In this document: one piece after another, positions 11,875 through 61,857 of the stretch
How positions within the stretch are numbered: the first letter of the stretch is position 1
How the letters are laid out: each line of letters starts with the position of its first letter
Sequence record: MT446422.1
DNA: 64,000 nucleotides
Reading direction: 5' to 3' (one strand)
Source: Escherichia virus TH57
Translations under genes and position numbers: made by a program
The notes under the pieces: generated by a model
The model's database searches: none
What the model was told of the DNA's origin: nothing
The model's input: only the letters and a program-made list of their open reading frames with translations

Positions 11875-12348
11875 ATGTTGTTGACTGGCAAATTATACAA
11901 AGAAGAAAAACAAAAACTTTATGATGCACAAGCTGGTAAGTGTCCAATTTGCCACCGTGATTTGGACTCTGATGTTCAGGCCAACCATCTTGACCATGAC
12001 CACGAATTGAACGGGCCAAAAGCCGGTAAGGTTCGCGGGTTACTATGCAATCTGTGCAATGGAACAGAAGGGCAAATGAAGCATAAGTTCAGCCGTTCGG
12101 GTCTGAAAGGTCGTGATGTTGACTACCTGGAATGGTTGGAGAGTTTGCTTGTCTATCTGAAATCTGATTATACCGAAAACAATATTCACCCCAATTTTGT
12201 AACAGACAAAGCCAAAGAGTTTGGCCGCCTGGGGAAAGAAGAAATGATTCGGGAAATGCTTTTGAATGGTATGACTTATAATGAATCTGACACCAAAACA
12301 CAATTAATGGCTTCATTTAAGAAGCAGCTTAGAAAGAGTTTAAAATGA
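11875..12348 (+). CDS. 49: endonuclease VII, Holliday junction resolvase
   Basis: 157 aa, near-identical to recalled T4 gp49 including Zn-binding cysteines. Confidence 0.92.
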   Translation: MLLTGKLYKEEKQKLYDAQAGKCPICHRDLDSDVQANHLDHDHELNGPKAGKVRGLLCNLCNGTEGQMKHKFSRSGLKGRDVDYLEWLESLLVYLKSDYTENNIHPNFVTDKAKEFGRLGKEEMIREMLLNGMTYNESDTKTQLMASFKKQLRKSLK

Positions 12349-14162
12349 CAATTGAAAACGAAATTGAAGGATTGATTCATAAAACTAATAAAGACCTTTT
12401 AAACGAGAATGCTAATAAAGATTCTCGTGTTTTTCCAACTCAACGTGACCTTATGGCTGGTATTGTATCTAAACACATTGCCAAAAATATGGTCGCGTCT
12501 TTTATTATGAAAGCACATGAAAGCGGAATTATTCATTTCCATGATATTGATTATTCCCCTGCTCTTCCATTTACTAATTGCTGTTTAGTAGATTTAAAAG
12601 GAATGCTTGAGAACGGATTTAAGCTTGGTAACGCACAGATTGAAACTCCTAAATCAATTGGTGTTGCTACTGCAATTATGGCACAAATTACTGCACAGGT
12701 TGCTTCTCACCAATATGGTGGAACGACTTTTGCTAATGTAGACAAAGTATTTTCTCCTTATGTTAAACGTACATACGCAAAACATATTGAAGACGCAGAA
12801 AAATGGCAAATCACTGATGCATTGAATTATGCCCAATCTAAAACAGAAAAAGACGTATACGATGCATTCCAAGCTTATGAATACGAAGTAAATACTCTCT
12901 TTAGTTCAAACGGACAAACGCCTTTTGTAACCATTACATTTGGTACGGGAACTGACTGGACTGAACGAATGATTCAGAAAGCAATTCTGAAAAATCGTAT
13001 CAAAGGTCTTGGTCGCGATGGGATAACTCCTATTTTCCCTAAACTTGTTATGTTCGTTGAAGAAGGTGTTAATCTTTATAAAGACGACCCGAACTATGAT
13101 ATTAAGCAGCTTGCTCTAGAGTGTGCAAGCAAAAGAATGTATCCTGATATTATTTCAGTTAAGAATAATAAAGCTATCACCGGTTCATCTATTCCTGTTT
13201 CTCCAATGGGTTGCCGTAGTTTCTTGAGCGTATGGAAAGATTCGACTGGTAATGAAATTCTTGATGGACGTAATAATCTTGGCGTTGTAACACTGAATCT
13301 TCCTCGTATTGCATTAGATTCTTATATTGGAACACAGTTCAATGAACAGAAATTTATCGAATTGTTTAATGAGCGAATGGATTTATGTTTTGAAGCATTG
13401 ATGTGCAGAATTAGTTCCTTAAAAGGAATTAAAGCGACTGTTGCTCCTATTCTTTACCAAGAAGGTGCGTTCGGGGTTCGTCTTAAACCTGATGATGATA
13501 TAATTGAGTTATTTAAAAACGGTAGAAGTTCAGTGTCTTTGGGATACATTGGTATTCACGAATTGAATATTCTTGTCGGTCGTGATATTGGGCAGGAAAT
13601 TTTAACTAAAATGAATGCTCGTCTTAAGCAGTGGACCGAAAGAACCGGTTTTGCTTTTAGCTTGTATTCTACTCCCGCTGAAAACCTTTGTTATCGATTC
13701 TGTAAACTTGATACTGAAAAATATGGAAGTGTAAAAGATGTTACCGATAAAGGATGGTACACTAACAGTTTCCATGTTTCAGTAGAAGAAAATATTACTC
13801 CGTTTGAAAAGATTTCTCGCGAAGCACCATATCATTTCATTGCGACAGGTGGTCACATTTCTTATGTTGAACTTCCTGATATGAAAAATAACTTAAAAGG
13901 TCTTGAGGCTGTATGGGATTATGCTGCACAACATTTAGATTATTTTGGTGTTAATATGCCAGTAGATAAATGTTTTACGTGTGGAAGTACCCATGAGATG
14001 ACTCCTACTGAAAACGGATTTGTTTGTTCTATTTGTGGAGAAACTGACCCTAAAAAGATGAACACAATAAGAAGAACATGCGGCTATCTTGGAAACCCGA
14101 ACGAACGCGGATTTAATCTCGGCAAAAATAAAGAAATCATGCATAGGGTTAAACACCAATGA
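12345..14162 (+). CDS. nrdD: anaerobic ribonucleoside-triphosphate reductase
   Basis: 605 aa uninterrupted; C-terminal CxxC Zn site; T4 NrdD-like. Confidence 0.92.
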   Translation: MTIENEIEGLIHKTNKDLLNENANKDSRVFPTQRDLMAGIVSKHIAKNMVASFIMKAHESGIIHFHDIDYSPALPFTNCCLVDLKGMLENGFKLGNAQIETPKSIGVATAIMAQITAQVASHQYGGTTFANVDKVFSPYVKRTYAKHIEDAEKWQITDALNYAQSKTEKDVYDAFQAYEYEVNTLFSSNGQTPFVTITFGTGTDWTERMIQKAILKNRIKGLGRDGITPIFPKLVMFVEEGVNLYKDDPNYDIKQLALECASKRMYPDIISVKNNKAITGSSIPVSPMGCRSFLSVWKDSTGNEILDGRNNLGVVTLNLPRIALDSYIGTQFNEQKFIELFNERMDLCFEALMCRISSLKGIKATVAPILYQEGAFGVRLKPDDDIIELFKNGRSSVSLGYIGIHELNILVGRDIGQEILTKMNARLKQWTERTGFAFSLYSTPAENLCYRFCKLDTEKYGSVKDVTDKGWYTNSFHVSVEENITPFEKISREAPYHFIATGGHISYVELPDMKNNLKGLEAVWDYAAQHLDYFGVNMPVDKCFTCGSTHEMTPTENGFVCSICGETDPKKMNTIRRTCGYLGNPNERGFNLGKNKEIMHRVKHQ

Positions 14163-14629
14163 ATTACGATAGAATATATCCTTGCGATTTTATTAATGGT
14201 CCTGGCTGCAGGGCCGTTCTTTTCGTTACAGGTTGTTTGCATAAATGCGAAGGGTGTTATAATAAATCAACATGGAATGCTAGAAATGGTGTTCCATTCA
14301 CTGGTGAAACACTAGAACAATTAATTGAATGTTTGAATAATGATTATATAGAAGGATTGACTATAACTGGAGGAGACCCTCTCTATCCCGATAACCGAGA
14401 TGTTATTCACTCTGTGGTTCAAACTATTAAAAATCTTTATCCCAATAAAAGCATTTGGTTGTGGACCGGATATAAGTTTGAAGATATTAAACAACTAGAA
14501 ATGCTTAAATATGTTGATGTTATTATTGATGGGAAGTATGAGAAAAATCTTCCGACCAAAAAACTGTGGCGAGGGTCAGATAATCAGCGACTTTGGTCAA
14601 ATACCGATGGGGTGTGGAAACATGATTAA
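14159..14629 (+). CDS. nrdG: anaerobic RNR activating protein (radical SAM)
   Basis: 156 aa; CxxxCxxC cluster motif near N-terminus; ATGA overlap with nrdD. Confidence 0.9.
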   Translation: MNYDRIYPCDFINGPGCRAVLFVTGCLHKCEGCYNKSTWNARNGVPFTGETLEQLIECLNNDYIEGLTITGGDPLYPDNRDVIHSVVQTIKNLYPNKSIWLWTGYKFEDIKQLEMLKYVDVIIDGKYEKNLPTKKLWRGSDNQRLWSNTDGVWKHD

Positions 14630-17919: not shown

Positions 17920-18477
17920 ATGAACGAAATTAAATTAACCAAGAATAACTATGTAAATAATAAAGAGCTTTTGAAAGCTATTTCGGAGTGGAAACAGAAG
18001 CTGAATGCGAACACCGACCCGAACAAAATTATTCGCCAGAACGATGTTATTGGTCTGGCGATTATGCTTATAGCCGAAGGTCTTAGCAAACGTTTCAACT
18101 TCTCCGGATATACCCAATCCTGGAAGCAAGAAATGATAGCAGACGGAATTGAGGCCGCAATAAAAGGTCTTCATAACTTCGACGAAACAAAATACGATAA
18201 TCCACATGCTTACATAACAATGGCTTGCTTCAATGCTTTCGTTCAGCGTATCAAAAAAGAACGTAAAGAAATGGCAAAGAAATATAGCTACTTCGTCCAT
18301 AACGTATATGATTCACGTGACGACGATATGGTGGCTCTGGCTGATGAAACATTTATCCAGGACATCTACGACAAAATGACACAGTACGAATCCTCTTTAG
18401 TTAAAGCGCCAGGGTCTGATAAGAGCGCCAAAGATAAAGAAGGTGATTTGGATTTTTTATATGGAACATCAATTTGA
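17920..18477 (+). CDS. 55: late-transcription sigma factor gp55
   Basis: 185 aa; long stretches identical to recalled T4 gp55. Confidence 0.92.
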
Positions 18478-18694
18478 TATTACCGATTTTTTAGATAAAA
18501 TCGAGGAAGACTTTACTGCGCTCCCATATTTCATTAAACTTTATCTGCGAGACATAAAAGGTCTTCCAATTGATATCGACCCTTTAAACGTCCGGAATCT
18601 GGAATTTACTTCACCGGATAATAACGTTGATTACCGTTATCATGTGGATAATGCTAATCTATATTTTACAATTGAGTTAACTCCCAAGGATTAA
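18461..18694 (+). CDS. hypothetical protein (55.1 position)
   Basis: 77 aa from internal ATG; start uncertain. Confidence 0.4.
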
Positions 18695-18695
18695 T

Positions 18696-19007
18696 ATGCA
18701 AGCTCCAGATATTTCTCAACTGACCGATAAGCAGATTGAAGAAGCACAGGAACGTCTCGAAGAAGCGAACGCACTCGAAGCGCAGAGTCAAGCAGCAAAG
18801 ATTCTGAAAAAGAATGCTCGTGAAATTGCACGACTGAATAAGCATGCTCAAGGGGCAGTGCTGGAAAACAATTTTGAAGCATACAAATATGCTTTAGTTA
18901 AACTGCGTGGAATTTACCGCCAACCAGTTACGGAAGACCTGATTAAGTTGATGTGGGAAACTACTCGCAAACAAATTTGGGAAATCGTAAATGGCATTAG
19001 TAAATAA
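18696..19007 (+). CDS. hypothetical protein
   Basis: 103-aa helical ORF. Confidence 0.5.
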   Translation: MQAPDISQLTDKQIEEAQERLEEANALEAQSQAAKILKKNAREIARLNKHAQGAVLENNFEAYKYALVKLRGIYRQPVTEDLIKLMWETTRKQIWEIVNGISK

Positions 19008-19194
19008 ACCTTTTAAACGGCTTCTTGTTGGAGCCGCTTTCAGACTTCGCTCATACGGTAATATCTGTATCAAGCAGACCGAAACCGAATATAAAATGGT
19101 TGGTCAGTATTCTGATGGTATTTTTCAGATTGAGCCTGTGGCCAAGGTTTGGGTGGATTCACACCAACTTAAGAAATGGTGGCAACGATGGTAG
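18991..19194 (+). CDS. hypothetical protein
   Basis: 67-aa ORF. Confidence 0.4.
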   Translation: MALVNKPFKRLLVGAAFRLRSYGNICIKQTETEYKMVGQYSDGIFQIEPVAKVWVDSHQLKKWWQRW

Positions 19195-19284
19195 GATTTT
19201 ATGAAAGCGGATGTAACGAAGACGAACATCCGGATTTTTAAGCTTATGAACGACGAATAAGAAAAAGTTTAAGAGGTTTTATGA

Positions 19285-19458
19285 ATGACGAATTCGACGG
19301 ATTTTGATAAGATTAAATCTGGCAAAAATGAGATGATACTTCAATTTGAAGCCGCTCGTATTAAAGCAGAAAATGAAGGCACTATTACCCATAAGAAAAT
19401 CAAGTTCAAGTCTAATCGCGAACCTCTGTATGGTGTATTAATTGGAAAGGAAGCCTAG
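19285..19458 (+). CDS. hypothetical small protein
   Basis: 57 aa, AAGAGG SD, terminator overlaps its end; not in track. Confidence 0.35.
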   Translation: MTNSTDFDKIKSGKNEMILQFEAARIKAENEGTITHKKIKFKSNREPLYGVLIGKEA

Positions 19459-19470
19459 TGCTTCCTTTTT
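19446..19470 (+). terminator. rho-independent terminator
   Basis: AAAGGAAGC-CTAGT-GCTTCCTTT followed by TT. Confidence 0.65.
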
Positions 19471-19493
19471 GCTTTATATTCGGGATGATAAAA
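19466..19493 (+). promoter_or_regulatory. middle-type promoter upstream of 47
   Basis: TTTGCTTTAT MotA-box-like element, then GATAAAAT. Confidence 0.4.
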
Positions 19494-19514
19494 TGAACCA
19501 ACTGAGGAGAACAT

Positions 19515-19658
19515 ATGGAATTATTTTTAGGATATGTTGTGTTATTCATGGCATTCTACACATTCACACGAGCTTGTTGGATAGGATTCTTTTCTACTCC
19601 TGACGGGTTCATTTCAATAATTTTATTTTGCACTGCGATAACGGCGCTTGGCTTATGA
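19515..19658 (+). CDS. hypothetical small membrane protein
   Basis: 47 aa, GAGGAGAA SD, ATGA overlap with gene 47; not in track. Confidence 0.4.
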   Translation: MELFLGYVVLFMAFYTFTRACWIGFFSTPDGFISIILFCTAITALGL

Positions 19659-20674
19659 AAATTTTAAATTTAGGTGATTGGCACTTGGGTGTCAAAGCTG
19701 ACGACCCATGGGCTCAAAACATTCAACGTGATGGTATTTTACAGGCGATTGCATATTCCAAAGCGAATGGAATTAAAGTTTGGATTCAATATGGTGATAT
19801 TTTTGACGTCCGTAAGGCCGTAACGCATAAGACAATGGAATTCAGCCGCGAGATTATGGAACTCCTTCGTGAAGCAGGAATTACTATGCACACGATAGTC
19901 GGGAACCATGACATGAATCTGAAGAATAAGATTCATCCTAATGCTATCACCGAACTCCTGAATAAGTATGACCATGTTAAAATCTACGACAAGCCAACGA
20001 CTGTTGATTTTGACGGTTGTCAGATTGATATGATTCCATGGATGTGTGACGAGAACGCGACTGACATTCATCAACACATCAAAACTTCTGGTGCCGAATA
20101 TTGCATCGGTCACTGGGAATTAACCGGGTTTTATTTCTATAAAGGATTGAAATCCCACGGGCTTGAGCCTGATTTCCTTAAGAAGTACAAGCAAGTTTGG
20201 TCTGGGCACTTCCATACCATTTCAGAAGCTGCGAACGTTAAGTACATAGGAACGCCATGGACATTAACAGCAGGTGATGAGAATGACCCGCGCGGATTCT
20301 GGGAATTTGATACAGAAACCGAAGAGATGAAATTTATTCCGAATGAAACCACCTGGCATCGGAAGATTTTTTATCCAAACGAAACTATTAACTACGACGA
20401 CTTCAAAGACTTATCAGTCCGTGTTATTGTAGAAAAAGTCGATAAAGACCTGACCAAGTTCGAATCTGAATTAGAAAAGCGTGTACATGAATTGCGTGTT
20501 GTCAATAAGGTTGATAACAGTGTTGATACGACTGACTCCGAAGAAGAGTTAGACATAAAACGCTTAACTGATATGATGGCAGAATATATTGATGCATTAC
20601 CTGACACCAATGAGAAAGAATCAAAAGCTCTTAAAGCATTGGCCAACAAATTATATCTTGAGGTGCAACCGTGA
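19655..20674 (+). CDS. 47: recombination endonuclease subunit gp47 (Mre11/SbcD-like)
   Basis: 339 aa from MKILNLGDWHLG; phosphoesterase motifs GDxHLG, GDxFD, GNHD. Confidence 0.9.
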   Translation: MKILNLGDWHLGVKADDPWAQNIQRDGILQAIAYSKANGIKVWIQYGDIFDVRKAVTHKTMEFSREIMELLREAGITMHTIVGNHDMNLKNKIHPNAITELLNKYDHVKIYDKPTTVDFDGCQIDMIPWMCDENATDIHQHIKTSGAEYCIGHWELTGFYFYKGLKSHGLEPDFLKKYKQVWSGHFHTISEAANVKYIGTPWTLTAGDENDPRGFWEFDTETEEMKFIPNETTWHRKIFYPNETINYDDFKDLSVRVIVEKVDKDLTKFESELEKRVHELRVVNKVDNSVDTTDSEEELDIKRLTDMMAEYIDALPDTNEKESKALKALANKLYLEVQP

Positions 20675-20934
20675 GACTTTATGATTTTAATGAAGCGGGG
20701 CTTGAACATATCCGCGAATGTGATGTGGTTGACGACGATAATCAACCGAATACTATTAAGTATTGGTTTGAAGCTATCACTGACCGGGAAACCGGTCAAC
20801 TTATCAAAGTCTATGTAGTCACCGATTGGGCCGTAGAATTTAGTTTTAATGTAATGGAAGATGATACTCCAGAAACATTAATTCATATGGCTGAATCATG
20901 CATCAAGGATGCTTATAATGATGAAAATGTATAA
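20671..20934 (+). CDS. hypothetical protein
   Basis: 87-aa ORF, ATGA overlap. Confidence 0.5.
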   Translation: MRLYDFNEAGLEHIRECDVVDDDNQPNTIKYWFEAITDRETGQLIKVYVVTDWAVEFSFNVMEDDTPETLIHMAESCIKDAYNDENV

Positions 20935-21133
20935 ACATGATTTTCATATTGGCGATGGCTGGTTCGGTAATGTAGAATGGGACGTGGATGGTTCTTGGTA
21001 TACCGGAACTATGTATGTCACTTCTGAATATTCTGAAGGTGTTTCATGGGTCATGGAACTTGACGACGTGTTTGCTTCTTCCGAAGAAATGCTAGAATAT
21101 GCTGAACAAACAATTCGTGAGAACAATACATGA
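20927..21133 (+). CDS. hypothetical protein
   Basis: 68 aa from in-frame ATG; start uncertain (track gives 20909). Confidence 0.4.
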   Translation: MYKHDFHIGDGWFGNVEWDVDGSWYTGTMYVTSEYSEGVSWVMELDDVFASSEEMLEYAEQTIRENNT

Positions 21134-29257: not shown

Positions 29258-29500
29258 ATGGAAACATTAATTGCGGGTACTGTTGTTCTGGGTGCTGGCT
29301 CTTTCTTCCTGGCTGCACTGGCATATTTTCTGCCGTGGATTATCGCACTACTGCGAGGAACCAAAAGTAATTGCGGAATCTTCTTTGTTAACCTCCTGTT
29401 AGGTTGGACAATGGTCGGATGGTTTATTGCATTTATCTGGGCACTCGTTGCTGAGCGTAAATCAAACGCACAAGTAATTATCATCAAGGAAACCAAATGA
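29258..29500 (+). CDS. imm: superinfection immunity protein Imm
   Basis: 80-aa two-TM protein with YFLPWIIA motif; downstream of 43 as in T4. Confidence 0.8.
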   Translation: METLIAGTVVLGAGSFFLAALAYFLPWIIALLRGTKSNCGIFFVNLLLGWTMVGWFIAFIWALVAERKSNAQVIIIKETK

Positions 29501-29640
29501 AGATAATTACAATTATTATACTGATTGCATTTTTTAGTATGTCAATCTATTGGGCAATAATGACTCCGCATATGATTCCAACTTTAATTTTGGGTTGGGT
29601 ATTTTTGGGGCTCCAAGCTCGCTATGAATGTTTTAATTGA
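29497..29640 (+). CDS. hypothetical small membrane protein (imm.1 position)
   Basis: 47 aa, ATGA overlap with imm; not in track. Confidence 0.4.
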   Translation: MKIITIIILIAFFSMSIYWAIMTPHMIPTLILGWVFLGLQARYECFN

Positions 29641-29650
29641 GGAAAATACA

Positions 29651-30154
29651 ATGAAAAAGTTAGCTATCGCAGCTGTTATGCTGCTATCTGGTTGTGCTTA
29701 CCAGGGCGATGTAGTTAATGTCAGTGAAATTGGTAAAGCGCGAATTGCTGCAGACCGTCAGGTGCATAATGGTTCCTTTGATTTCAAAGGTGGTACTGGA
29801 CTTATCTACAAACGCGACAACAATCAATGTGGAAACAACTGCGCAAAATATGCTCAACAAGAAATTGAGTACAAACGCGAGCAAGCTGCAAAGCATGACG
29901 AAATCATTGCCAAGCTGGAAGCAGAAACTAAGCGACAAAATGACTTGGATACTGTTAACCAGATTTCACAGGTCTGCATGTCATACATCAATATGCAGAT
30001 AAACATCATGCGCGCGGAAGCTTATCAGGCAGCGGAGACGGGTTCTCCAAAAGCCAATGAGTATCGCGATATGTATCAGCGGTCTGCTCAAAATCGTCTG
30101 AGCTATATTAATAAATGTGTGGCTAAAGAGAAAGCCCGCCAAGGTATTAACTAA
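29651..30154 (+). CDS. hypothetical lipoprotein
   Basis: 167 aa from ATG with GAGGAAAA SD; signal peptide plus lipobox LSGC; sits where T4 has 42 and beta-gt. Confidence 0.55.
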   Translation: MKKLAIAAVMLLSGCAYQGDVVNVSEIGKARIAADRQVHNGSFDFKGGTGLIYKRDNNQCGNNCAKYAQQEIEYKREQAAKHDEIIAKLEAETKRQNDLDTVNQISQVCMSYINMQINIMRAEAYQAAETGSPKANEYRDMYQRSAQNRLSYINKCVAKEKARQGIN

Positions 30155-30177
30155 CATTAATTGCTCTAAAAATACAG

Positions 30178-30186
30178 TGATATAAT
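30178..30186 (+). promoter_or_regulatory. extended -10 promoter element upstream of uvsX
   Basis: TGATATAAT. Confidence 0.35.
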
Positions 30187-30239
30187 TATCCTATCTTAAA
30201 CCTGTGAGAAAAATATAATGGTGCCTATGGAAAAAATGA

Positions 30240-31418
30240 ATGTCTATTGCAGATTTGAAATCCCGTTTGATTAAAGCTTCTACATCCAAAATGACTGCGA
30301 CTCTTACTAAGTCCAAGTTTTTTAATGATAAAGATGTAGTTCGTACAAAAATCCCGATGCTGAACATTGCAATCAGCGGTGCACTAGATGGTGGTATGCA
30401 GTCAGGTTTGACTATTTTTGCTGGTCCGTCAAAACACTTTAAATCCAATATGGGTTTAACGATGGTCTCTGCATATATGAACAAATACCCCGAAGCAATC
30501 TGTTTGTTCTATGATTCAGAATTTGGTATCACAGAAGCCTATCTGCGTGCAATGAAAGTAGACCCGGAGCGTGTTATCCACACACCAATCCAGTCGGTTG
30601 AACAATTGAAAGTTGATATGGTTAACCAGCTTGAAGCAATTGAGCGTGGTGAAAAAGTCATTATCTTTATTGACTCAATCGGTAACATGGCGTCAAAAAA
30701 AGAAACAGAAGATGCGATGAACGAAAAAGTCGTTGGCGATATGACTCGTGCTAAATCCCTGAAATCTCTGTTCCGTATTGTTACCCCATATTTTAGTATC
30801 AAGGATATTCCTTGTGTCGCGGTTAACCATACAATCGAGACGATTGAGATGTATAGCAAAACCGTTATGACCGGTGGTACAGGTGTTATGTATTCTGCGG
30901 ACACCGTATTCATTATCGGCAAACGCCAGATTAAAGAAACTGGTAAAGAACTTGAAGGTTTCCAATTTGTTCTGAATGCCGAAAAATCTCGTATGGTCAA
31001 AGAGAAAAGTAAATTCTTCATTGATGTAAAATTCGATGGTGGTATTGACCCGTATTCTGGCCTGCTTGATATGGCAATGGAAATCGGATTTGTAGTGAAA
31101 CCGAAAGTTGGTTGGTATAACCGTGAATATCTTGATGTTGAGACCGGTGAAATGGTCCGCGAAGAAAAATCATGGCGTGCAAAAGATACTAACTGTACTG
31201 AATTCTGGGGCCCGTTGTTTAAGCACGAACCTTTCCGTGACGCAATCAAACGCCATTACCAACTGGGTGCAATCGATAGCAATGCTGTTGTTGATGCCGA
31301 AGTTGATGCGCTTATTGCCTCCAAGGTTGAAAAATACTCTGCCCCTGAAGGTAAGGCAAAACCATCTGCGGCAGATATCGAAAACGATTTAGATATGATG
31401 GAAGACCTTGATGAATGA
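30240..31418 (+). CDS. uvsX: recombinase UvsX (RecA-like)
   Basis: 392 aa; Walker A GPSKHFKS; high identity to recalled T4 UvsX. Confidence 0.95.
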   Translation: MSIADLKSRLIKASTSKMTATLTKSKFFNDKDVVRTKIPMLNIAISGALDGGMQSGLTIFAGPSKHFKSNMGLTMVSAYMNKYPEAICLFYDSEFGITEAYLRAMKVDPERVIHTPIQSVEQLKVDMVNQLEAIERGEKVIIFIDSIGNMASKKETEDAMNEKVVGDMTRAKSLKSLFRIVTPYFSIKDIPCVAVNHTIETIEMYSKTVMTGGTGVMYSADTVFIIGKRQIKETGKELEGFQFVLNAEKSRMVKEKSKFFIDVKFDGGIDPYSGLLDMAMEIGFVVKPKVGWYNREYLDVETGEMVREEKSWRAKDTNCTEFWGPLFKHEPFRDAIKRHYQLGAIDSNAVVDAEVDALIASKVEKYSAPEGKAKPSAADIENDLDMMEDLDE

Positions 31419-33176: not shown

Positions 33177-33184
33177 AATATTTT

Positions 33185-33209
33185 AAAAGGGGCTTACAGC
33201 CCCTTTTTC
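33185..33209 (+). terminator. rho-independent terminator
   Basis: GGGGC-TTACA-GCCCC followed by TTTTT. Confidence 0.7.
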
Positions 33210-33215
33210 TTATGT

Positions 33216-33247
33216 TATAATGACCCTATCAACTACTGGAGAATAAA
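33216..33247 (+). promoter_or_regulatory. early promoter cassette, CATCAACTACTG leader type
   Basis: TATAAT, then GACCCTATCAACTACTGGAGAATAAA ATG. Confidence 0.55.
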
Positions 33248-33565
33248 ATGAAAACTATTGATTGCAAAGCGGAATACAAAGTTTATTATCATGGCTCAAG
33301 CTCTAATGCTGGAATCCAAAATATGCTTTGCCCTCCTGATGCAACTGGTGTTCTGTCAGAAGTTGGGCGCAAGAAAAATTTAGGGCGTGTGTTTTTTACT
33401 GAAGATATTGGTTTGGCCCGTATCTATGCAGGAAGAGCAGCTCGCTCGTATGGAGGAGAACCCCGTCTTTATCGTGTGATTGCACCTGTTGACGTGGTTT
33501 GTTTAAATGATACTAAAGGTGCTACAGTTTATCACGCTGACTGGGCCTTCTGTGAGGAAATCTAA
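33248..33565 (+). CDS. hypothetical protein
   Basis: 105-aa ORF directly behind a terminator-promoter cassette, between 41 and dmd. Confidence 0.5.
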   Translation: MKTIDCKAEYKVYYHGSSSNAGIQNMLCPPDATGVLSEVGRKKNLGRVFFTEDIGLARIYAGRAARSYGGEPRLYRVIAPVDVVCLNDTKGATVYHADWAFCEEI

Positions 33566-33778
33566 ATGTATAAATTAGAGAACGTAGTGTTTATTGGTTG
33601 GTTTGAAAATGGTAATATGTTTACCAAAGAAACTGCACTAGATGTTAGCGACCAAAATATGATTGAATGGGTCACAGTGCAGTATGCAGAAGTGAATAAT
33701 GCGCTGGTGAAAGCCTTTGTTAATGACAATAAAGTTTTTGAATATGATTATCGTATCCACTTATCTGAGGAAATCTAA
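33566..33778 (+). CDS. dmd: Dmd antitoxin (inhibitor of RnlA/LsoA-type toxins)
   Basis: 70 aa; VVFIGWFENGNMFTKE...YAEVNNALVKAFVNDNKV closely matches recalled T4 Dmd; position downstream of 41. Confidence 0.75.
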   Translation: MYKLENVVFIGWFENGNMFTKETALDVSDQNMIEWVTVQYAEVNNALVKAFVNDNKVFEYDYRIHLSEEI

Positions 33779-34120
33779 ATGGCTTTTAATCCAGAAGACC
33801 GCGTAAAAGTAACAATCAAAGTGAGTGCTGTTGGTGTACCATCTTTTGAACGTTCTAGCATGTTCCACCCAGCAGGTATTCACTGGTATGTCCAGAAGAC
33901 TGCTGATAACTATAATGCACTGGTTGAAGCTTTTGTTGATGACAAGCTAATTCATAAAGTAGACATGCGTAAGGGTACTGCATTGCGTAATCTGATTTTG
34001 ACCGTTGAAGCTCAACTGGTAAATGAAGAAATCTGCCTTACTGATATTGAAGCAGCTCTTCATATTGCGCGTGCTGAATATTACAACTTGACTGGTTTTT
34101 CAGTTGAAGGCGAAAAATAA
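33779..34120 (+). CDS. Dmd-like paralog
   Basis: 113 aa; shares the NALVEAFVDDKLI core with the adjacent Dmd. Confidence 0.5.
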   Translation: MAFNPEDRVKVTIKVSAVGVPSFERSSMFHPAGIHWYVQKTADNYNALVEAFVDDKLIHKVDMRKGTALRNLILTVEAQLVNEEICLTDIEAALHIARAEYYNLTGFSVEGEK

Positions 34121-37296: not shown

Positions 37297-37815
37297 ATGG
37301 CTCATTTTAATGAATGTTCACAACTGATTGCTGGTGTTGACAAAGCTGAAGAAGCTTATGACAATGCAATTATCGAAGGCACTGACCCGCTGCAGATTAT
37401 GCTTGATATGCAGAAATCATTGCAGGTCCGTTTGGCTACTGAAAAACCAGAATACAACTCACATCCAGACGAATTGGCTACCGCCGGCGATGTTGTTGCA
37501 TGGCTTCGTAACCAGAAAGATTATGTTGATGATGAATTCCGTGAACTTCTAACTTCTCTCGGTGGTATGTCTAATGGCGAGAAAGCTGCATCTAGTGTAT
37601 GGAAGCCTTGGAAAGCCCAACATGCTGAATTCCGTAATCGTCGTATTGATGAGTTGTCTCCTGAAGACCAGCTCGAAATTAAATTTGAGATGATTGACAT
37701 CCTGCACTTTGTTCTGAACATGTTCCATGGTCTTGGCCTGTCGGCAGAAGAAATCTTTAAATTGTATTACCTGAAAAATGCTGAAAACTTTGCTCGTCAA
37801 GACCGAGGTTATTAA
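37297..37815 (+). CDS. 56: dCTPase-dUTPase gp56
   Basis: 172 aa from MAHFNEC; strong match to recalled T4 gp56. Confidence 0.9.
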   Translation: MAHFNECSQLIAGVDKAEEAYDNAIIEGTDPLQIMLDMQKSLQVRLATEKPEYNSHPDELATAGDVVAWLRNQKDYVDDEFRELLTSLGGMSNGEKAASSVWKPWKAQHAEFRNRRIDELSPEDQLEIKFEMIDILHFVLNMFHGLGLSAEEIFKLYYLKNAENFARQDRGY

Positions 37816-38096
37816 TGGCTCGTTTAAATAAACGACAGCTTAAGAAAGCTCGTAAGAAGCATATTAATGATATAATTGAAAACGCTAATGTTGAAATCTT
37901 TGTAGAACTTTTAGCCAATCAACTAAAAAATTTATCTAAACAAGAAATTGCTATGAATACTGAAAATGCTAAAAATGTAATCGAAACTCATAATGTTTTT
38001 GCCCAAGCTACTGCTGAATACATTGCTAATCCTACTGCTGAAAATCTAGCTAAAATGACCGAAGCCAATAAAGCAGTCCAAGCCGCCAAATTGTAA
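37815..38096 (+). CDS. hypothetical protein
   Basis: 93-aa helical basic ORF, ATGA-type overlap. Confidence 0.5.
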   Translation: MARLNKRQLKKARKKHINDIIENANVEIFVELLANQLKNLSKQEIAMNTENAKNVIETHNVFAQATAEYIANPTAENLAKMTEANKAVQAAKL

Positions 38097-53775: not shown

Positions 53776-54045
53776 ATGATTAAGCATTTCAATGTGTCAG
53801 ACCGTGACATCAAAGTTTCAAATCTCCGGGGTCACCATTACGCAGGAATAGTTTACTGTGGCAAGCTCATCAAGCATGAAGGTGATGTTCACTATGGCTG
53901 GTTGGAATGTGATGAAGTAGTTGTTGGGGAATTCCCTGACCCGGATTCTGATACATTTGATGCTAATGACCGTTTGTATTATGGCGAGCTTCATATCCGG
54001 GGAATCGTCGGTATCGATGAGGTAAAAGATGATTCAGAAGAGTAA
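53776..54045 (+). CDS. hypothetical protein
   Basis: 89-aa ORF. Confidence 0.5.
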   Translation: MIKHFNVSDRDIKVSNLRGHHYAGIVYCGKLIKHEGDVHYGWLECDEVVVGEFPDPDSDTFDANDRLYYGELHIRGIVGIDEVKDDSEE

Positions 54046-54622
54046 AACATGGGAGCATCTGAAAAAGATGCCCTCCTTTCTTTATACAAAGGAAGACTTA
54101 ACACCTGAATCCCTACAAAAGATTGTAGACACGGCCAGGTATTCATTGCGTAAAGACCCAGGTCAAGACCGTGAGCAAGTCATGCAAAGATGTATGGTGG
54201 CTACAATGGCAGAACAAGCTATTGCTAAATGGACCTCCGGCTTTTTATGCGGCGGTGATGAAGATTACGATAATCCTTATTCCTTTGCATTTGATGTAGT
54301 TTCGAAGGAAGGGGTAAGAATCGAAGTCAAGACCCACCAGTCTGGTTCCAAATGGATATCCGTGCATACTGGTAGTCAGGGCGATTATCCACATGGTTAC
54401 GGGATTAATCTTGGTCCTTTTATGCAACACAAGCTTGCTGACCTTATGATTATGTTTAATGTAAAAGAGACTATCAAAGGTTATAGATTTAAACCAAAAT
54501 TCCTTGCTGGGCCTGGGGCTTTTGTTCCTGAGTCCGGTCTTGTGCAGAAGTCACAAGGGGATGGCTGGTACCTCCGTTCTTGTTCAGAAGAAAAATTCCC
54601 CTATCACCGGTTTACAAGCTGA
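54029..54622 (+). CDS. hypothetical protein (possibly denB-like by position)
   Basis: 197-aa ORF between rIIB and ndd; no motif recognised. Confidence 0.45.
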   Translation: MIQKSKTWEHLKKMPSFLYTKEDLTPESLQKIVDTARYSLRKDPGQDREQVMQRCMVATMAEQAIAKWTSGFLCGGDEDYDNPYSFAFDVVSKEGVRIEVKTHQSGSKWISVHTGSQGDYPHGYGINLGPFMQHKLADLMIMFNVKETIKGYRFKPKFLAGPGAFVPESGLVQKSQGDGWYLRSCSEEKFPYHRFTS

Positions 54623-59864: not shown

Positions 59865-60041
59865 ATGAACATCTATCTGATTAAGTACCTAAAAGATGGT
59901 AAAGAACGTGATTACCAAATCCCCGCAAAAAATGAATATGATGCGTGTGTTCGCCTTGGTCAGATTCATGGTGATGACCGTGAATATCGCAATGATGTTG
60001 AAATTGAAATCCAATCTGTAACTTTGAAAGTGAGAGGCTAA
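59865..60041 (+). CDS. hypothetical small protein (motA.1 position)
   Basis: 58 aa with GAGGAAA SD; not in track. Confidence 0.4.
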   Translation: MNIYLIKYLKDGKERDYQIPAKNEYDACVRLGQIHGDDREYRNDVEIEIQSVTLKVRG

Positions 60042-60043
60042 TC

Positions 60044-60376
60044 ATGAATAAGCTGAATATTGTTAATGAATTGCGTGCTTGCGTAGAACCTACTCAAGAG
60101 GGTTGGGATGTTTGGTATCATGGCGCTTACCTTGGGACTATTGTCAAGGTCAAAGCTGGTCAGTATCTTATTCACCGCCAGGATGATGCAACAGCACCGT
60201 TTGGCGTCCGCAAGAACTTCATGGCAGCGATTGGCGCCTTTGTTCCAGCAGCATATGAAGTCTATAAAGCTGACTATAAGGAATACCAGGAATCACAACC
60301 AGTTATTCGCTCAATTGGTGTCAATAAAGCTCAACAGAAAAGTCTGTGGCAACGTGTTAAAGGTTGGTTCAAATGA
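60044..60376 (+). CDS. hypothetical protein
   Basis: 110-aa ORF. Confidence 0.5.
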   Translation: MNKLNIVNELRACVEPTQEGWDVWYHGAYLGTIVKVKAGQYLIHRQDDATAPFGVRKNFMAAIGAFVPAAYEVYKADYKEYQESQPVIRSIGVNKAQQKSLWQRVKGWFK

Positions 60377-60711
60377 TTCCTATGGAGCTAAATTGGGATG
60401 GCGAAGGTCATTCCCTTAAATTGATTGAAGAGCAACGTAACGCTTGGGATGAGCGTTGTGCCCTGGTGAATGGTATTAAGGTAATTTATAACCTTCATCT
60501 CCAAATTGATAATATTCCTCTTGAGTTTGGTATGCAGTTATCACGTTTTCTTGAGATTATTACTATAGAAAAAGTATCCATAACTTCATTTGGTGTATGT
60601 CAAACAGTTGATATCAAATTGGCTTCTTCTGATAAAGGCGAGTTGATTGGTATTGGTGATAAAATTCATGAATTCGTGAAATATAATGGTTATAAGGTGA
60701 TTATCAAATGA
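60364..60711 (+). CDS. hypothetical protein
   Basis: 115-aa ORF. Confidence 0.5.
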
Positions 60712-61477: not shown

Positions 61478-61577
61478 ACACGATTTCAATAAGGCATCTG
61501 TCCATAAGGACAAGAAGAAAAATTTTAAAGAGTCCAATCGCAAACAGAAACATAAGGGTAAAGGCTATGATTACTAA
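61458..61577 (+). CDS. hypothetical small basic protein
   Basis: 39 aa, K-rich; overlaps neighbours; not in track. Confidence 0.25.
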   Translation: MNNLVAKHDFNKASVHKDKKKNFKESNRKQKHKGKGYDY

Positions 61578-61857
61578 ACTCCATACATATCAAGCAACTG
61601 AATTGGTTATTCTTATTGATGAGCTTTTTAAAATCCATGCTTCAGTTCCAGCCGAAATCTATGCAGAAATTCTTTGTGATTTGGATAGCAGCTTTGGCTA
61701 TATTCAACCGGAATATACAATTAGATTCTCTAGTGAACGACCTGGCTACGCTAAAGTGGTTTTTGGTCCTGGATTAGATGAAGAACAAGTATTAAGAGAA
61801 ATTCAAGAAGAAATTGATGATTTTGGTTTAGAAGATTACATCGAGGAATCACTATGA
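61567..61857 (+). CDS. hypothetical acidic protein (possible Arn-like by position)
   Basis: 96 aa, strongly acidic, two ORFs upstream of asiA where T4 encodes Arn. Confidence 0.4.
   Translation: MITKLHTYQATELVILIDELFKIHASVPAEIYAEILCDLDSSFGYIQPEYTIRFSSERPGYAKVVFGPGLDEEQVLREIQEEIDDFGLEDYIEESL

Follow-up and report, generated by a model that had tools for sequence, protein, structure and literature searches.

A Gaprivervirus interval without the alpha-glucosyltransferase gene, and a thymidylate synthase variant that may place 5-methylcytosine in the phage DNA

In phage T4, the interval between genes 55 and 47 measures approximately 3.15 kb, and mobB (264 aa) and the alpha-glucosyltransferase gene a-gt (400 aa) are located between a-gt.2 and 47.1. 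RB69 (Mosigvirus) and Dhakavirus phages use arabosyl-5-hydroxycytosine, which is made by the 5-hydroxy-dCMP synthase gp48, ara-GTs and a UDP-arabinose cluster (PMC13326640). In the phages Xp12 (Xanthomonas) and PaMx74 (Pseudomonas), cytosine is completely replaced by 5-methylcytosine through a dCMP methylase homologous to thymidylate synthase (TS) and a deaminase of the Cd family. Phages with this base contain one TS homologue together with the Cd-family deaminase, and natural homologues with D177, among them the Xp12 enzyme, made 5mdCMP in co-expression with T4 gp1 (bioRxiv 10.1101/2024.12.05.627091). With the exchange N177D the enzyme takes dCMP instead of dUMP as its substrate and forms 5-methyl-dCMP, while L143D/E marks hydroxymethylases and D169N marks 5-hydroxy-dCMP synthases (PMC8670742; PMC13326640). 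The base used by Gaprivervirus is called unknown in PMC8056088 and PMC12115623, and for that reason advice on therapeutic use was withheld in both. No enzyme assay or nucleoside analysis of any Gaprivervirus was found in the searchable literature.

Restriction analysis is available for VR7, the type phage of the genus, whose DNA is described in PMC6326788 as having modified cytosines and being unglycosylated, in contrast to the glycosylated DNA of VR5 and T4. The legend of the restriction figure names Csp6I as the glycosylation-sensitive probe, and EcoRII and SalI as the enzymes that cytosine methylation blocks; in the same study VR7 was grown on the E. coli B strain BL21(DE3). The assay included treatment with T4 beta-GT, and the legend gives the label hydroxymethylated to the control T4147 and not to VR7 (PMC6326788). 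The BREX system is stated there to block VR7 like T4147 and to the same extent as VpaE1, a phage with unmodified DNA; T4 and VR5 are shielded by glycosylation, whereas VR7 is fully sensitive (PMC6326788).

The DNA analysed here, a 64-kb stretch referred to as the window, belongs to the VR7/SP18 group of Gaprivervirus and is 96.8% identical to phage TH54 over 62.4 kb. Complete genomes of TH54 (closest relative) and VR7 were used for whole-genome checks. An earlier note on this DNA had described an interval of about 1.2 kb between genes 55 and 47 that lacks a-gt and holds five small ORFs (77, 103, 67, 57 and 47 aa), a terminator and a MotA-box promoter. All of these points were verified. The interval spans 1177 bp (18477 is the last base of gene 55 and 19655 the first of gene 47), the sizes and number of the ORFs are exact, and both regulatory elements were recognised. 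A junction of 56 bp occupies the place of a-gt, and the best tblastn match of T4 alpha-GT in the window has E=2.3. The features are as follows:

17920..18477, + strand: gene 55, late sigma factor, 185 aa, left border; 80% identical to T4 gp55 over 182 aa, E=9e-97
18461..18694, + strand: a-gt.5 homologue, 77 aa; T4 a-gt.5 tblastn E=7e-13, Pfam DUF5491 E=1.5e-12, phrog_1169
18696..19007, + strand: a-gt.4 homologue, 103 aa; T4 a-gt.4 tblastn E=7e-23, Pfam DUF2654 E=9e-25
18991..19194, + strand: a-gt.3 homologue, 67 aa; T4 a-gt.3 tblastn E=1e-13, phrog_1648 E=6e-29
19285..19458, + strand: a-gt.2 homologue, 57 aa; T4 a-gt.2 tblastn E=3e-17, Pfam DUF5486 E=3e-19
19443..19471, + strand: intrinsic-terminator-like hairpin at the a-gt.2 end; 12-pair stem, 5-nt loop, T run
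19459..19514, no strand: a-gt.2/47.1 junction, 56 bp; the T4 equivalent contains mobB and a-gt, about 2.1 kb
19470..19494, + strand: middle (MotA-dependent) promoter-like site, read by eye from the sequence
19515..19658, + strand: 47.1 homologue, 47 aa, predicted membrane protein; 78% identical to T4 gp47.1, E=8e-21, phrog_6693 E=1e-30
19655..20674, + strand: gene 47, SbcD/Mre11-like recombination nuclease subunit, 339 aa, right border; 72% identical to T4 gp47, E=6e-170, Pfam Metallophos

These features identify the interval as a conserved cluster of small Gaprivervirus genes, a-gt.5, a-gt.4, a-gt.3, a-gt.2 and 47.1. The five ORFs are 39-78% identical to their T4 counterparts (tblastn), each belongs to a separate PHROG family, and the T4 backbone with the order 55, a-gt.5 to a-gt.2, 47.1, 47, 46 is kept. 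As in T4, the first 17 nt of a-gt.5 lie within the end of gene 55, and 47.1 and gene 47 share an ATGA overlap. Gene 55 has the same label in the annotated genomes of VR7 and RZ; 47.1 is not in VR7. The regulatory elements are predicted to form a terminator and, after it, a middle promoter from which transcription resumes into 47.1-47-46. The promoter-like site consists of a MotA box (TGCTTTA, 19470-19476), a 12-bp spacer and a -10 element (TAAAAT, 19489-19494), a spacing that agrees with the T4 middle-promoter consensus, and a ribosome-binding site (GAGGAG, 19505-19510) lies upstream of 47.1. A generic sigma-70 promoter scan of the interval gave 6 matches compared to 6.7 expected from shuffled sequence, i.e. 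no excess. The junction was also considered as a deletion scar of a-gt, which was rejected as the sole nearby a-gt alignment (19451-19522, 24 aa) has a chance-level E value of 5.3.

Outside Tequatrovirus, phages normally have no a-gt at this position. The gap can be seen in the VR7 and SP18 GenBank annotations of 2010-2011, and RB69-like and JS98-like phages have it as well. In RB69 the a-gt-less interval likewise runs from a-gt.5 to a-gt.2 and then to gene 47, and Dhakavirus records of the WG01 type align over the interval and lack a-gt. As RB69 is equally devoid of a-gt at this locus, the gap by itself is ordinary and already annotated.

The glycosyltransferase search was extended over the window and the complete genomes of TH54 and VR7, and homologues of alpha-gt and beta-gt were found in none of them. 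The earlier note had also reported beta-gt as missing, which agrees with a best tblastn match of T4 beta-GT over the 64-kb window at E=0.72. Gene 42, encoding dCMP hydroxymethylase, has no homologue in the window (T4 gp42, tblastn best E=0.21). Alpha-gt gave no match at E<=0.01 in complete VR7 or TH54, and the searches of both genomes for beta-gt and gene 42 were negative. The dam gene is absent from the window and from the whole VR7 and TH54 genomes. RB69 differs from these phages by an 11-gene island, p045-p055, in its uvsX-43 gap and by p003 beside rIIA; neither p003 nor p045-p055 has homologues in TH54, VR7 or the window, the one exception being p048, which matches td weakly as a paralogue. 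The locus that would hold gene 42 and beta-gt is empty in the window:

29258..30239, + strand: empty gene-42/beta-gt locus; ORF list, with T4 gp42, beta-GT and RB69 gp45-55 negative in tblastn
29258-29500: imm
29497-29640: 42.1
29624-30154: lipoprotein-like ORF, 176 aa
from 30240: uvsX

The gap between imm and uvsX (29501-30239) contains only 42.1 and the 176-aa ORF, which belongs to phrog_1754 with no function assigned. These searches show a lineage without gene 42, alpha-gt, beta-gt and the RB69-type 5-hydroxycytosine-arabinose genes, which sets it apart from T4, where mobB accompanies a-gt and the interval is 3.15 kb instead of 1.18 kb. Without gene 42 the substrate for glucosylation is not made at all, and a-gt is missing from the interval because the lineage does without the hydroxymethylcytosine-glucose pathway altogether. 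The absence of gene 42 had been overlooked in the earlier note.

The same note had suggested that the DNA is either not glucosylated by T4-type enzymes or is modified by enzymes encoded elsewhere, and support was obtained for both halves. The first agrees with the searches above and with the unglycosylated state, differing from T4 and from the Dhakavirus VR5, that PMC6326788 reports for VR7. For the second, the same paper states that VR7 "has modified cytosines", and a candidate enzyme is the Asn177Asp thymidylate synthase homologue described below. Glycosylating or hypermodifying enzymes of a different kind from T4 alpha-GT and beta-GT could be hidden among the hypothetical genes, as many Gaprivervirus ORFs have no assigned function and the Krischvirus phage SAP is reported to have glucosylated bases but no recognisable pathway genes (PMC13390438). 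This is considered very improbable: VR7 DNA is reported as unglycosylated with Csp6I as the probe and VR7 lacks the BREX protection that glycosylation confers on T4 and VR5 (PMC6326788), an RB69-like sugar-nucleotide biosynthesis cluster is missing, and Pfam scans revealed no glycosyltransferase domain among the large unassigned ORFs of the window or the genus-specific ORFs scanned. SAP/TB34 was set aside as an analogue because these phages lack denB and alc. Nine VR7 ORFs without T4 homologues (ORF134c, 135c, 136c, 147c, 148c, 149c, 232c, 239c and 039c) had been considered as modification enzymes and were rejected; Pfam analysis returned only DUF7275/DUF7277, T5orf172/MUG113 or nothing. ORF147c, annotated as cytidine/deoxycytidylate deaminase-like, has no deaminase domain and looks unrelated.

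Genes that act against cytosine in T4 are nevertheless retained, and the loss of gene 42 with gp56, DenB, Alc, gp1 and Cd kept is the interesting part of this genome. Three loci in the window are relevant:

37297..37815, + strand: gene 56, dCTPase/dUTPase, 172 aa; 69% identical to T4 gp56, E=5e-79, Pfam dUTPase_2
54029..54622, + strand: denB, endonuclease IV homologue, 197 aa; 47% identical to T4 DenB, E=3e-52, and 96% identical to VR7 DenB
61567..61857, + strand: Arn-like acidic ORF, 96 aa, in synteny with arn; match to phrog_3151 ('inhibitor of McrBC restriction'), E=9e-6

T4 DenB acts specifically on cytosine-containing DNA. TH54 and VR7 encode Frd, Cd, gp1, Alc, DenA and DenB; together with gp56 and DenB in the window, the T4 set of gp56, gp1, Cd, Frd, DenA, DenB and Alc is kept. 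Gapriverviruses are without every known cytosine-modifying enzyme and yet keep nucleases and a transcription blocker expected to destroy cytosine DNA; the missing a-gt is one symptom of this published open puzzle.

The td gene, the sole TS-family locus in VR7 and TH54, lies outside the 64-kb window, and the residue evidence is taken from relatives that are 94-98% identical in DNA to the window phage. Asp was found at the position of E. coli ThyA residue 177 in 8/8 aligned Gaprivervirus Td sequences (VR7, TH54, RZ, CJ20 and four cluster representatives) and in 13/13 full-length cluster members read, including VR25, VR26, UPEC01, DK-13, P479, MN01 and CJ20. Asn occupies this position in 116/116 other T-even Td sequences and also in the T4 Td crystal-structure sequence 1TIS. 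The residues R21, E58, W80, Y94, L143, C146, H147, Q165, R166, S167, D169, G173, H207 and Y209 are unchanged. The protein aligns to 1TIS in full length and is 64-69% identical to T4 Td throughout, including the C-terminus, and frd adjoins td. As the td genes of the clade are 80-100% identical in DNA with Asp177 fixed, and Asn is invariant in the 116 others, neutral drift does not account for the exchange. With Leu143 and Asp169 kept, the published rules predict a dCMP methylase and 5-methylcytosine in place of cytosine as in Xp12. From the residue pattern we infer that Td is a dCMP methyltransferase and that cytosine is replaced by 5-methylcytosine.

Ordinary unmodified cytosine DNA, as described for the RB49-like Krischvirus, would require that gp56 (as a dUTPase only), DenB and Alc have drifted in function and that Asp177 is merely tolerated. 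A gp56 homologue also occurs in Pseudotevenvirus and Krischvirus, where gene 42 is missing (table in PMC12115623); neither a glycosyltransferase nor gene 42 was found here, and BREX restricts VR7 to the same extent as unmodified VpaE1 (PMC6326788). Against this stand the modified cytosines reported for VR7 in the same study, the presence in Gaprivervirus of denB and alc, which are missing from Krischvirus and Pseudotevenvirus (PMC12115623), and the clade-fixed Asp177, a pattern that is not drift. Unmodified DNA is therefore regarded as improbable. Somewhat less improbable, though still unlikely, is that the Asp177 enzyme acts on dCMP with another product such as 5-hydroxymethyl-dCMP, so that the DNA would contain non-glucosylated hydroxymethylcytosine or another small C5 group. 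Asp177 is common to T4 gp42 and RB69 gp48, A148L and F149L lie close to the catalytic Cys with further changes at 82 and 179, and VR7 behaves towards BREX like T4147, which contains hydroxymethylcytosine. The published markers of a methyl product are in place, however, as the only TS-family gene of the genus has Leu143 instead of the Asp/Glu143 that accompanies Asp177 in the gp42 signature, and Asp169 instead of the RB69-type D169N. The enzyme also resembles T4 Td throughout, the adjoining frd needed by a DHF-producing methylase is kept, and the VR7 study included T4 beta-GT treatment and gave the hydroxymethylated label to T4147 alone.

The explanation judged probable is that the lineage has left the hydroxymethylcytosine-glucose pathway and uses Asn177Asp Td as a dCMP methyltransferase. 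It is also fairly probable, if held slightly less firmly, that the whole genus dropped hydroxymethylation and glycosylation and fully replaces cytosine with 5-methylcytosine through its own Asn177Asp Td, with gp56, DenB and Alc kept. In such a pathway the exchange of Asn177 for Asp in the resident td, with the other catalytic residues kept, would have created the dCMP methyltransferase. Hydrolysis of dCTP and dCDP by gp56 would supply dCMP, which Td(D177) would convert to 5-methyl-dCMP with the by-product dihydrofolate being recycled by Frd. Together, gp1 and host NDP kinase would then produce 5-methyl-dCTP for incorporation by the gp43 polymerase. Virion DNA would contain 5-methylcytosine instead of cytosine and be free of sugar, and only host DNA, with its cytosine, would be open to attack or silencing by DenB, DenA and Alc. 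Host ThyA, host-DNA breakdown with Tk and/or deamination of 5-methyl-dC nucleotides by Cd, as proposed for Xp12, could provide dTMP. The D177 enzyme may retain some dUMP activity or make another C5 product.

Post-replicative methylation of many sites by a DNA methyltransferase of the phage or the host, rather than replacement at the nucleotide level, is the least probable of the readings, with only a slim chance of being correct. The EcoRII and SalI results described for VR7 could in principle stem from site-specific methylation. The VR7 annotation contains no DNA methyltransferase, dam is missing, and the retained dCTPase, DenB and Alc are understandable only under complete replacement. BL21(DE3), the B strain on which VR7 was grown, is dcm-negative.

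The 5-methylcytosine reading shares with the Xp12/PaMx74 system a single TS-family gene with Asp177, a DHFR, a gene of the dCMP-deaminase family and a dNMP kinase (gene 1) able to handle 5mdCMP; a related Xanthomonas phage encodes a TS(D177)-deaminase-DHFR trio. Xp12 and PaMx74 are Mesyanzhinovviridae, whereas the phages studied here are Straboviridae in which the resident T-even Td and not a distant homologue carries the exchange, in combination with the T-even host-exclusion set of dCTPase, DenB and Alc. The Gaprivervirus deaminase gene is not beside td, and 5-methylcytosine in the DNA is only predicted here. The exchange is the same single Asn-to-Asp change as in the published N177D enzyme, with the TS active site otherwise intact, but the Gaprivervirus variant is natural and clade-fixed and adds E82Q, A148L, F149L, A179G and A182G. 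Of these, E82Q, A148L, F149L and A179G are clade-specific substitutions near the active site and may count against 5-methylcytosine.

Further observations count against this reading. McrBC, McrA and Mrr should act strongly on DNA fully substituted with 5-methylcytosine, and T4 Arn gives incomplete rescue of T4 lacking glucosylation on rgl+ hosts. K-12 MG1655 was the isolation host of RZ, and VR7 is without even the Arn-like ORF, which is present in TH54. This 96-aa ORF aligns with T4 Arn at 36% identity over 36 aa (BLASTP, E=2e-6) and is a candidate for a divergent Arn-like inhibitor of McrBC; 5-methylcytosine DNA, if true, would provide a rationale for its presence.

The Asp177 Td leads to the specific prediction of 5-methyl-dC in virion DNA. 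If this holds, Gaprivervirus would be the first member of the T4 group with a 5-methylcytosine genome, which would answer the published question of its base and add a third T4-family chemistry to hydroxymethyl-glucose and hydroxy-arabinose through a one-residue change in a housekeeping enzyme. Such phages would be predicted to be sensitive to McrBC, Mrr, MspJI-type and BREX defences and resistant to many type II enzymes, and would offer a T4-like, easily grown supply of fully 5-methylcytosine DNA. They would then obtain thymidylate from the host or by deaminating 5-methyl-dC nucleotides. At 50% clustering, Gaprivervirus Td merges into the general T-even Td cluster and the representative search added little. 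In the all-against-all search of representatives, approximately 8 of 150 neighbouring representatives carry Asp177, which indicates only that such variants exist elsewhere.

The interval between genes 55 and 47 measures 1177 bp and contains exactly five ORFs, confirming on every point the earlier note, which had described about 1.2 kb with five small ORFs, a terminator, a MotA-box promoter and no alpha-glucosyltransferase gene (a-gt). The following features define it:

17920-18477, gene 55, 80% identity to T4
19443-19471, terminator-like hairpin (12-pair stem, then a T run)
19470-19494, middle-promoter-like site directly after the hairpin: TGCTTTA (19470-19476), 12 bp, TAAAAT (19489-19494), then a GAGGAG ribosome-binding site
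19655-20674, gene 47, 72% identity to T4

The five ORFs are homologues of T4 a-gt.5, a-gt.4, a-gt.3, a-gt.2 and 47.1 (tblastn E values of 7e-13 to 7e-23; 39-78% identity). Pfam domains among them are DUF5491, DUF2654 and DUF5486, each ORF has a separate PHROG family, and the annotations of VR7 and SP18 follow the same naming. The T4 counterpart spans approximately 3.15 kb, and in it a-gt.2 is separated from 47.1 by mobB, a homing endonuclease gene, and a-gt (400 aa); this junction is 56 bp in the window. T4 alpha-GT and beta-GT used as queries gave no match above chance within the 64-kb window, which also confirms that beta-gt is missing, as the earlier note had stated. Both regulatory elements were also recovered: a T run follows the hairpin stem, and the arrangement at 19470-19494 fits the T4 middle-promoter layout. 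A generic sigma-70 promoter scan of the interval showed no enrichment over shuffled sequence.

The missing a-gt is by itself ordinary, already annotated and visible in GenBank since 2010-2011. Among the records examined, a-gt occupies the 55-47 locus only in T4 (Tequatrovirus), and its absence there is the common state. RB69 (Mosigvirus) has the same order without a-gt (55, a-gt.5, a-gt.4, a-gt.3, a-gt.2, 47), and WG01-type Dhakavirus records align at 80% identity across the interval with no additional 1.2-kb gene.

The 55-47 region is matched over most of its length by 57 phage records, the best being Escherichia virus TH54 (98.5%), followed by vB_YenM_P8, vB_EcoM_RZ, SP18, VR7, VR20, VR25 and VR26, all of the genus Gaprivervirus (Straboviridae, Tevenvirinae). 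TH54 aligns with 62.4 of the 64 kb at a mean identity of 96.8%. VR7 is collinear with the window (VR7 coordinates 52765-1, then 169285-158376), which therefore spans tk through to asiA and t in the order tk, nrdC, 49, nrdD/G, 55, 47, 46, 45, 44, 62, 43, imm, uvsX, 41, 61, 56, dda, 39, rIIA, rIIB, denB, ndd, 52, motA, asiA, t. Several local differences were observed. The anaerobic ribonucleotide reductase genes nrdD (605 aa) and nrdG (156 aa; together 12345-14629, +) are also found in TH54, and VR7 lacks this 2.4-kb segment, gene 49 there following almost directly after 55.8. Genes 47.1 (19515-19658, +) and 46.1 (20909-21133, +, Pfam DUF5487) lie in segments without a VR7 match and represent small indels inside the genus. 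Downstream of gene 41, 33184-34118 shows approximately 70% identity to VR7 versus 90-97% in the flanks, a locally hypervariable or exchanged segment amid small early genes. The motA-arn region contains a 58-aa ORF (59865-60041, +, phrog_20740) and a 115-aa ORF (60364-60711, +, phrog_14178) in segments not found in VR7.

The loss extends to the entire hydroxymethylation and glycosylation pathway. A homologue of gp42, the T4 dCMP hydroxymethylase, was not found in the window (best E=0.21), though the canonical gene 42 locus lies inside it, between these genes:

29258-29500, imm
30240-31418, uvsX

Between them stand 42.1 and a lipoprotein-like ORF of 176 aa, and nothing else. T4 carries 42, b-gt and segA at this locus. 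In RB69 it is occupied by an island of 11 genes encoding gp48, a 5-hydroxy-dCMP synthase, together with sugar-nucleotide enzymes and candidate arabinosyltransferases (PMC13326640). The whole-genome glycosyltransferase search that the note had proposed was run on VR7 and TH54 and was negative: T4 alpha-GT, beta-GT, gp42 and Dam and RB69 p003 and p045-p055 were not found in either complete genome, the sole signal being a weak paralogue match of RB69 gp48 to td, the thymidylate synthase gene. The genus-specific or unassigned ORFs scanned contained no glycosyltransferase domain.

Despite the loss of 42, a-gt and b-gt, the lineage retains the remainder of the T4 cytosine-exclusion set. Two members lie in the window, and gp1, Cd, Frd, DenA and Alc are encoded in VR7 and TH54:

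37297-37815, gene 56, gp56 dCTPase
54029-54622, denB, endonuclease IV homologue (DenB)

Beside gene 56, VR7 and T4 carry the homing endonuclease segF; the window has a 93-aa ORF instead (37815-38096, +; segment 37816-38098) with no VR7 counterpart. T4 dam, which adjoins 56 in T4, was not found in the window. In VR7 and TH54, alc adjoins a short second Alc-like ORF (77 aa, approximately 47% identity to part of Alc; VR7 NC_014792 137010-137243, L006:17711-17944), which suggests that this inhibitor of host transcription has been partly duplicated.

Two comparative papers describe Gapriverviruses as having no known enzyme for a non-canonical base, yet keeping DenB, Alc, DenA and dCTPase; both allow for an unknown base or enzyme and leave the transduction risk unjudged (PMC8056088; PMC12115623). 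Gordeeva et al. digested VR7 DNA, either treated with T4 beta-GT or untreated, using Eco32I, MboI, EcoRII, SalI and Csp6I (PMC6326788). Their conclusions are that VR5 and T4 are glycosylated, the control phage T4147 is hydroxymethylated and VR7 "has modified cytosines" in "unglycosylated DNA"; BREX, a host defence, blocks VR7 by >1e11, like T4147 (PMC6326788). These statements therefore support both alternatives offered in the earlier note: the DNA is not glucosylated, and its modification is due to something encoded elsewhere. The base is not named anywhere in the literature found on the genus.

A candidate for the modifying enzyme is Td, encoded by the single thymidylate-synthase-family gene of VR7 and TH54, which is annotated td and occupies the usual frd-td-nrdA position. 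Its active-site motif reads PFDIGSY versus PFNIASY in E. coli ThyA and T4 Td. The closest 120 database homologues and E. coli ThyA were aligned and compared at residue 177 (E. coli ThyA numbering). Asp177 occurs in VR7, TH54, RZ, CJ20 and four Gaprivervirus-clade cluster representatives, including SP18 (a cluster of 73 members) and vB_YenM_P8, and Asn177 in all other T-even Td sequences (116/116), Dhakavirus Bp7 and RB33 included. All 13 full-length cluster members read, among them VR25, VR26, UPEC01, DK-13, P479, MN01 and CJ20, have Asp177. The change is old and maintained, because the td genes of the clade are only 80-100% identical in DNA. All other catalytic or substrate-contacting residues are unchanged (R21, E58, W80, Y94, A142, L143, C146, H147, Q165, R166, S167, D169, G173, H207, Y209), and the alignment to the sequence of the T4 Td crystal structure covers the full length of the protein. 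Under the published residue code, a change of Asn177 to Asp moves the enzyme from dUMP to dCMP, with 5-methyl-dCMP as product (PMC8670742; PMC13326640), Leu143 to Asp/Glu marks hydroxymethylases and Asp169 to Asn 5-hydroxy-dCMP synthases (PMC13326640).

Residues at positions 143, 169 and 177 by alignment
T4 Td: L, D, N
T4 gp42: D, D, D
RB69 gp48: E, N, D
Gaprivervirus Td: L, D, D

By this alignment, Gaprivervirus Td has the pattern predicted for a methylase. The Asp177/Leu143/Asp169 signature was read in relatives, from which we infer it for TH57, since td lies outside the window. The clade has further substitutions of its own close to the active site (E82Q, A148L, F149L, A179G), and these could alter the product.

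Best supported, and in our view fairly probable, is a reading in which 5-methylcytosine takes the place of cytosine in the genus and is produced by the resident Asn177Asp thymidylate synthase. In such a scheme, gp56 would convert dCTP and dCDP to dCMP, Td(D177) would convert dCMP to 5-methyl-dCMP with release of dihydrofolate, recycled by Frd, and gp1 with host NDP kinase would yield 5-methyl-dCTP for incorporation into DNA by gp43. DenA, DenB and Alc would then act on host cytosine DNA only, and dTMP could be supplied by host ThyA, by host-DNA breakdown with Tk, and/or by the action of Cd on 5-methyl-dC nucleotides. Cytosine methylation is described as blocking EcoRII and SalI, and Csp6I as methylation-insensitive (PMC6326788). 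The VR7 restriction data, as given in the figure legend, fit this scheme, under which T4 beta-GT would have nothing to glucosylate. Natural Asp177 homologues of 5mC phages, Xp12 included, gave 5mdCMP when co-expressed with T4 gp1, and the proposal for these phages is that they lack a separate dTMP synthase and that their thymidine nucleotides arise through Cd-family deamination of 5-methyl-dC nucleotides (bioRxiv 10.1101/2024.12.05.627091). Xanthomonas phage MET13-T1 (L017 3968-5858) has adjacent genes for a thymidylate synthase homologue (Asp177), a dCMP deaminase and DHFR, the Xp12-like arrangement described for 5-methylcytosine phages. As Xp12 is already a known kind of 5mC system, Gaprivervirus would be an added member of it, arising by a one-residue change in another virus family. 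The prediction addresses a question already posed in print.

Counting against 5-methylcytosine is the attack by McrBC, McrA and Mrr that DNA methylated throughout would be expected to face, with which the isolation of RZ on K-12 MG1655 is at odds. One ORF bears on this point:

61567-61857, +, Arn-like acidic ORF of 96 aa, syntenic with T4 arn

Its PHROG match is "inhibitor of McrBC restriction" (E=9e-6), and it also resembles the C-terminal third of T4 Arn (E=2e-6, 36% identity); TH54 has this ORF, VR7 does not. On rgl+ hosts, T4 without glucosylation is not known to be fully rescued by Arn alone. The Arn-like ORF would become relevant if the DNA carries a non-glycosylated 5-substituted cytosine.
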